A DNA stretch of 64,000 bases from Escherichia coli (GTDB taxonomy: Bacteria > Pseudomonadota > Gammaproteobacteria > Enterobacterales > Enterobacteriaceae): assembly GCF_003334405.1 (NCBI RefSeq), contig NZ_QOWM01000005.1; one strand, given 5' to 3'. Each line of letters begins with the position of its first letter. Position 1 is the first letter of the stretch. Made by a program: the position numbers and the translations under genes. The notes under the pieces are model-generated. The model had not been told where the DNA came from, searched no databases, and was given only the letters and a program-made list of their open reading frames with translations. This document shows positions 17,378-17,630 of the stretch, piece by piece.

Positions 17378-17529
17378 GTTCGTGTCTCCTGAAAAAAATC
17401 GTTCTGAATAAGTGTAAACGCGCGATTGTACCATTACCAATAGCGCTTTTACTATGTTGTGACCTCGGTTCCGGGAAACAAACCTGGCCAGACATTGTTA
17501 CACAACACTCCGGGTAATGCATTCCAATA

Positions 17530-17545
17530 CTGTATATTCATTCAG
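17530..17545. promoter_or_regulatory. LexA (SOS) box CTGTATATTCATTCAG between divergent ssb and uvrA
   Basis: CTGT-N8-xCAG palindrome read in sequence, about 85 bp upstream of uvrA. Confidence 0.8.
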
Positions 17546-17630
17546 GTCAATTTGTGTCATAATTAACCGTTTGTGATCGCCGGTAGCACCATGCCACCGG
17601 GCAAAAAAGCGTTTAATCCGGGAAAGGTGA

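Follow-up and report, generated by a model that had tools for sequence, protein, structure and literature searches.

SoxR is a regulator of the MerR type that binds between the elements of its target promoter and, when its iron-sulphur cluster is oxidised, activates soxS by remodelling of the DNA. The LexA operator of gammaproteobacteria, the SOS box, is a near-palindrome of 20 bp, TACTG(TA)5CAGTA, whose CTG-N10-CAG core is invariant. In the literature on Escherichia coli, uvrA and lexA-dinF are described as damage-induced and ssb as weakly so. The lexA-dinF operon carries two tandem SOS boxes, and a continuous lexA-dinF transcript induced by UV has been published (PMC3009722). For the uvrA-ssb SOS box the published heterology index is 6.98, and according to the literature LexA is able to repress only one of three ssb promoters; the induction of ssb is described as SOS-dependent but modest and its basal expression as SOS-independent, and older studies are at odds over whether ssb is SOS-inducible at all. 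After exposure to ciprofloxacin the reported maxima of the log2 fold change were 3.2 for uvrA, 3.0 for dinF and only 1.8, reached late, for ssb, with no significant rise in the SSB protein. The operators of Salmonella enterica lie 6 and 27 bp from the lexA ATG and 80 bp from the uvrA ATG.

The window analysed here, by which we mean the whole stretch of 64,000 nucleotides (64 kb), almost certainly holds three well-known E. coli regulatory loci (ssb/uvrA, lexA-dinF and soxRS) that lie within 21 kb of each other by happenstance. Compared with the uvrA-ssb region of E. coli K-12, the window has the same genes, with no change in the 253-bp spacer or the 20-bp box, and is 100% identical there to the MG1655 records; in the lexA-dinF operon both box sequences and their spacing from the lexA ATG (6 and 27 bp) are as published, with no difference from the described operon; and the soxRS locus has the same palindrome, spacer length and divergent gene pair as that of E. 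coli, again with no difference. Salmonella enterica shares with the window a box between divergent ssb and uvrA and a pair of lexA boxes, 6 and 27 bp from the ATG in both, and the distance from the uvrA box to the ATG is in agreement as well (83 bp here, 80 bp in Salmonella).

The full-length window was aligned with the MG1655-derived record NZ_CP032667.1 and was 99.984% identical to it. Nine SNPs and a 1-bp indel separate the two, and the regulatory regions of the SOS and sox genes are free of them. The differences are located as follows:

7860, 9404, 9768, 10569, 11582, 30116, 53392, 55861, 55881, 57135: positions of the nine SNPs and the 1-bp indel relative to NZ_CP032667.1

One segment, 7500-12000, was used for comparison with natural isolates; it contains four of the SNPs and the indel and matched many natural isolates at 100%, with no K-12 record among the best matches. 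Because of this match, and of the SNPs and the indel relative to the MG1655 record, the source of the window is, as judged from its sequence, not K-12 itself but a strain very closely related to it that has its genes in the K-12 order. The first-pass annotation had described the arrangement as standard K-12 organisation, which is correct for the gene order and the annotation, both as in the K-12 record, but not for the strain, which is not strictly K-12 (9 SNPs, 1 indel). In the K-12 record the gene order is nrfD-A, acs-yjcH-actP, yjcF, yjcE, ghxP, soxR, soxS, pdeC, yjcB, ssb, uvrA, yjbR, yjbQ and aphA, followed by tyrB, alr, dnaB, qorA, pspG, dusA, zur, yjbJ, dinF, lexA, dgkA, plsB and ubiCA, and finally by the mal genes, xylE, psiE, yjbEFGH, pgi, lysC, rluF, pepE and yjbB. 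Two frameshifted pseudogenes are annotated in that record, a DUF2713 gene in the yjbL/yjbM region (30196-31181, minus strand) and a SopA-family gene, yjbI (about 39219-40800, minus strand); in the window, too, the length of the interval 30196-31181 is not divisible by three. Searches with Rfam models also placed a lysine riboswitch upstream of lysC (57981-58177, plus strand), STnc430 upstream of yjbE (55793-55942, plus strand) and four intergenic repeat-type elements of the naRNA4/CssrE kind (6128-6198, 42108-42178, 46337-46407 and 56008-56078, all on the minus strand).

The following features were located at the ssb/uvrA locus:

16841-17377, minus strand: ssb coding sequence, 178 aa (ORF list; annotation of the MG1655 record)
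17411-17437, minus strand: conserved block upstream of ssb, TGGTACAAT on the minus strand, extended -10-like (near-invariant across 26 enterobacterial intergenic regions)
17528-17547, no strand given: single LexA operator common to uvrA and ssb, TACTGTATATTCATTCAGGT (CTG-N10-CAG; matrix score 17.78 bits)
17531-17560, minus strand: putative distal, LexA-controlled ssb promoter with -35 ATGACA (17560-17555) and -10 TATACA (17536-17531, within the LexA box), proposed from inspection of the sequence
17535-17563, plus strand: putative uvrA promoter with a weak -35 TATTCA (17535-17540, within the LexA box), a 17-bp spacer and an extended -10 TGtCATAAT (17555-17563), proposed from the sequence and the conservation of the block
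17631-20453, plus strand: uvrA coding sequence, 940 aa (ORF list; annotation of the MG1655 record)

Positions 17378-17630 correspond exactly to the 253-bp gap between the start codon of ssb (17377, minus strand) and that of uvrA (17631), and were matched in all 5426 complete E. coli genomes, with the flanking annotation ssb1 and uvrA. From the LexA box within this gap it is 83 bp to the start codon of uvrA and 150 bp to that of ssb, and the 18-nt core of the box is the published uvrA box, base for base (PMC3009722). When 26 enterobacterial intergenic regions were aligned, the block at 17553-17572, TGTGTCATAATTAACCGTTT, was near-invariant across genera, as was the block upstream of ssb, and the rest of the spacers was about 62% identical. 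The block TGTGTCATAATTAACCGTTT would represent the extended -10 of uvrA, with its TG starting 8 bp downstream of the LexA box, and the block at 17411-17437 may be a proximal promoter from which ssb is expressed constitutively. The putative distal ssb promoter would be arranged back-to-back with the putative uvrA promoter, and its position inside the LexA box is consistent with the published repression by LexA of only one of the three ssb promoters. None of the uvrA and ssb promoters was called in a strict sigma-70 consensus scan.

According to the mechanism that we propose, the 253-bp spacer would be occupied by one LexA dimer, at its single 20-bp operator. As the weak -35 of the putative uvrA promoter lies under this operator, bound LexA should shut out RNA polymerase, and the same operator would overlap, on the opposite strand, the -10 of the distal ssb promoter. 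It would follow that uvrA is clearly repressed by LexA and that, among the three ssb promoters, only one is LexA-controlled; the proximal conserved block would escape LexA, giving high constitutive expression of ssb with a modest and late SOS induction.

An alternative is that the shared box serves uvrA only and that ssb is in effect outside the SOS regulon. The distance of 150 bp between the box and the ssb ATG would fit this reading, as would the literature on the two ssb promoters that escape LexA, the several older radioimmunoassay and microarray studies in which ssb was not induced, and the SSB protein level, which did not rise significantly after ciprofloxacin. However, the ssb transcript does reach a log2 fold change of 1.8, late, in response to the same drug, and Salmonella ssb is reported to be 9.6-fold up with nalidixic acid, so that we consider a box restricted to uvrA improbable and retain the reading in which the operator is shared by both genes.

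The conservation of these regulatory regions was determined within E. coli and across genera. The ssb-uvrA spacer was at least 99% identical in 5281 of 5427 E. coli records, a 45-mer over both lexA boxes was found exactly in 5339 of 5426 E. coli genomes and a 40-mer of the soxS promoter (14036-14075) in 5396 of 5426. A 30-mer around the uvrA box was found exactly in 4700 of the 5426 genomes and was missing in 726. Operator polymorphism was rejected as the origin of the missing 30-mer: 982 records differ by a single mismatch in a 50-mer around the box, and all five variants sampled from these had T in place of C at 17548, the base immediately 3' of the box, and the 20-bp uvrA/ssb box was intact in ten of ten variant E. 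coli genomes sampled. The C-to-T change at 17548 probably accounts for many of the 726 genomes without the exact 30-mer.

Across genera, the exact 20-mer of the box was present in 29 species-representative genomes, and in each of them (29/29) it was located between divergent ssb and uvrA. These genomes belong to Escherichia, Citrobacter, Kluyvera, Kosakonia, Klebsiella, Enterobacter, Superficieibacter, Yokenella, Entomohabitans, Edaphovirga and other Enterobacteriaceae, together with two labelled as Bacteroidota; as the loci were picked by an exact match to the box, they are informative on the flanking blocks only and not on the conservation of the box itself. Salmonella is not among the genomes with the exact E. 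coli 20-mer, and therefore its ssb/uvrA box differs by at least one base. The two Bacteroidota-labelled genomes, Flavobacterium paronense CECT 8460 (L011, on a contig of 9467 bp) and Chryseobacterium sp. 18061 (L028), have the enterobacterial gene order pdeC-yjcB-ssb-uvrA, and in the former PdeC, YjcB and SSB are 100% identical to those of E. coli and uvrA is frameshifted; the presence of enterobacterial genes in both points to contamination or mislabelling of public assemblies.

At the lexA-dinF locus the following features were located:

32381-33760, minus strand: dinF coding sequence (the longest ORF has 459 aa and starts at ATG 33760; the start in the RefSeq record is 33706, giving 441 aa)
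33739-33768, minus strand: intrinsic-terminator-like hairpin, a 13-bp stem followed by UUUGUUUUU (terminator scan; RNA fold -24.1 kcal/mol, z -4.4)
33779-34387, minus strand: lexA coding sequence, 202 aa (ORF list; annotation of the MG1655 record)
34394-34413, no strand given: proximal lexA operator (operator 2), 6 bp from the ATG and reading AACTGTATATACACCCAGGG on the lexA strand (17.82 bits; core identical to the published box)
34415-34434, no strand given: distal lexA operator (operator 1), 27 bp from the ATG and reading TGCTGTATATACTCACAGCA on the lexA strand (18.76 bits; identical to the published box)

The two lexA boxes are 1 bp apart, with a distance of 21 bp between their centres. 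A putative lexA promoter would have its -10, TATACT (34427-34422), inside operator 1 and its -35, TTCCAA, at 34450-34445; it was not called in the strict sigma-70 consensus scan. The two adjacent operators would thus cover the lexA -10 (box 1) and the start region (box 2), an arrangement suited to negative autoregulation. No LexA-like match was found by the matrix scan between lexA and dinF, and dinF would be expressed through transcription running on past lexA. The hairpin follows the stop codon of lexA without delay, occupying the 18-bp gap together with the 5' end of dinF, and overlaps the ATG at 33760, which is one of two candidate dinF starts, the other being 33706. With a strong terminator-like hairpin between lexA and dinF, co-transcription of dinF must therefore involve read-through, and we take the hairpin to be comparable to the terminator between recA and recX, which is reported to be leaky. 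Nothing specific on a terminator between lexA and dinF came out of a search of the literature.

The soxRS locus comprises the following features:

13569-14033, minus strand: soxR coding sequence, 154 aa (ORF list; annotation of the MG1655 record)
14041-14071, plus strand: soxS promoter with putative hexamers -35 TTTACC (14041-14046) and -10 TATACT (14066-14071) separated by a 19-bp spacer, assigned from the sequence
14045-14062, no strand given: SoxR operator, a perfect 18-bp palindrome, CCTCAAGTTAACTTGAGG, within the soxS promoter spacer
14119-14442, plus strand: soxS coding sequence, 107 aa (ORF list; annotation of the MG1655 record)

The genes soxR (minus strand) and soxS (plus strand) are divergent, with 85 bp between them, and the SoxR palindrome spans the last two bases of the soxS -35 hexamer. 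The layout is that of a MerR-type system, namely a dyad operator between the -35 and the -10 with an over-long spacer, of 19-20 bp in promoters of this type, and a regulator gene that is divergently adjacent to its target. The soxS promoter was not called in the consensus scan, which allowed spacers of 16-18 nt only, because its 19-bp spacer is of the over-long MerR type and lies beyond that range. The sequence is that of the soxS promoter (primer copy) used in PMC4234026. SoxR bound to the 18-bp palindrome in the 19-bp spacer would activate soxS when its iron-sulphur cluster is oxidised, with soxR transcribed divergently. At the other end of soxR, the Hfq-binding small RNA sraL/RyjA was located at 13436-13576 (plus strand; Rfam 153 bits). 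It converges on soxR, which is encoded on the other strand, and the two share 8 nt at their 3' ends, where the terminator of the small RNA is situated.

A LexA matrix (symmetrised, 20 bp) was built from 17 published E. coli boxes outside the window (sbmC, umuD, recN, istR2, dinI, dinD, yebG, ruvA, uvrD, sulA, cho, recA, uvrB, polB, dinG, dinB and ftsK; PMC3009722), with the lexA box left out, and was used to scan the 64-kb window. The number of matches expected by chance was determined from 300 simulated 64-kb sequences at each of the Markov orders 1, 3 and 5. The three known operators, which all have the CTG-N10-CAG core with an AT-rich centre and whose cores are those of the boxes tabulated in PMC3009722, ranked 1 to 3 with 18.76, 17.82 and 17.78 bits, inside the score range of the training boxes (13.2-27.6 bits) and about 5.6 bits away from the next match. 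Matches 4 and 5 scored 12.21 bits (3783-3802) and 11.89 bits (49242-49261) and were followed by a continuum below 11 bits. At a threshold of at least 17.7 bits, three matches were observed against 0.03-0.06 expected per 64 kb; beyond the known three, there were two at 11.8 bits or more (0.9-2.2 expected) and four at 10 bits or more (2.3-5.4 expected), so that the matrix scan yielded no additional weak LexA boxes beyond chance in the 64-kb window.

The first-pass annotation had listed a divergent ssb/uvrA pair with a shared LexA box, lexA-dinF with two LexA boxes and soxR/soxS with an intact operator, and had suggested these operators as positive controls for motif scans elsewhere in the window, and a LexA matrix scan of the whole window. 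All of this holds: one box is present in the 253-bp spacer and its core is the published uvrA box, both lexA boxes were found and match the published sequences (PMC3009722), and the 18-bp palindrome is present in a promoter identical to the sequence in PMC4234026. The operators also proved suitable as controls, being ranked first to third, about 5.6 bits clear, by an independently trained matrix, and the proposed scan, once run, gave extra matches at chance level only.

An apparent excess of the CTG-N10-CAG pattern in the window (31 occurrences against 12.35 from dinucleotide shuffles) was considered and rejected, since trinucleotide counts predict 31.2. The excess arises because dinucleotide shuffles do not keep the trinucleotide (codon) bias; the window holds 1391 CTG and 1434 CAG, and other spacings between the two give 19-41 pairs, except for 7 at spacing zero.

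With regard to the promoters, the putative hexamers appear to overlap the LexA boxes. Their positions were assigned from inspection and conservation, because the strict sigma-70 scan calls none of them; the promoters are weak matches, are of the extended -10 type or have a 19-bp spacer.

The two highest-scoring sites after the known operators are the following:

3783-3802: LexA-like site, TACTGTCGTGAAAAACAATA, 43 bp upstream of the nrfA ATG (12.2 bits)
49242-49261: LexA-like site, reverse complement TACTGGGTATTCATTCAGAC, across the xylE start codon (11.9 bits)

It might be supposed that TACTGTCGTGAAAAACAATA at nrfA and TACTGGGTATTCATTCAGAC at xylE are further LexA operators, weak but functional, as they are the fourth and fifth best matrix matches, are both situated at gene 5' ends and, with heterology scores that we re-derived as about 12.3-12.5, stay below the value of 15 often given as the cut-off, and as the xylE site has 16 of 20 bases in common with the uvrA/ssb box. 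Against this, two extra matches of at least 11.8 bits compare with 0.9-2.2 expected in 64 kb. In the nrfA site TTG replaces CTG in one half-site, and the site would extend roughly from +30 to +49 relative to the transcription start, as estimated from an FNR-like TTGAT-N4-gaCAA site upstream of it, and would thus be downstream of the promoter core. The xylE site is built of the first four codons, ATG AAT ACC CAG. Both genes are absent from the published SOS gene lists examined, and the supplements of a tiling-array study had no entry for xylE, nrfA, ssb or soxS. We therefore regard it as highly unlikely that these are functional operators, and chance matches as the preferred reading of both. 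Very unlikely, too, is the broader proposition that the nrfA and/or xylE site is a real low-affinity LexA target or else that the lexA hairpin is a regulated attenuator setting the lexA:dinF ratio in the SOS response. If nrfA and xylE were LexA targets, the respiration of nitrite or the uptake of xylose would be linked to the SOS response.

For the question of whether the proximity of the loci is meaningful, the span bounded by the outer lexA box and the 3' end of soxR was measured as 20,866 bp. Between 27 LexA operator loci (the count in a review table) and 50 (the quoted regulon size) were then placed at random on 4.64 Mb. Such placement gives 2.5-8.9 expected pairs within 16.9 kb and a probability of 0.93-1.0 of at least one pair. 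For soxRS, the probability of having a LexA operator no more than 3.5 kb away is 4-7%, in a comparison that is post hoc and one of many possible. The closeness of the three loci is no more than chance gives. The first-pass annotation had stated that they all fall within 21 kb, which the measured span bears out, and had spoken of a clustering of SOS and oxidative-stress regulons; the proximity in that statement is real, but it carries no statistical or functional weight.

A selected "stress island", in which the co-location of the SOS loci and soxRS would aid their co-regulation through a shared chromosomal domain or a local concentration of repressor around lexA, would account for the presence of all three loci within 20.9 kb. 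It would also agree with the similar number of genes that separates lexA and uvrA in Salmonella, as estimated from locus tags, and with the distance between soxRS and ssb, which is 3-7 kb in Escherichia, Superficieibacter, Kluyvera, Yokenella and one further Enterobacteriaceae genome. However, a pair within 16.9 kb is to be expected by chance with the probability of 0.93-1.0 given above, the proximity of soxRS to a LexA operator has its 4-7% only after the fact, and the intervening genes are unrelated housekeeping genes (dnaB, alr, tyrB, aphA, qorA). Moreover, the surroundings of ssb contain no soxS in K. pneumoniae (over 8.6 kb) or in Edaphovirga (over 7.9 kb). A selected island is in our view extremely unlikely, and chance proximity is retained as the explanation.

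The whole arrangement is the already-known, textbook organisation of E. coli, with nothing novel in it. Its value is one of calibration only: matches to the LexA matrix below about 14 bits in 64 kb of E. coli DNA are indistinguishable from chance, and members of a regulon that are close to each other at a 20-kb scale are not to be read as a functional cluster.
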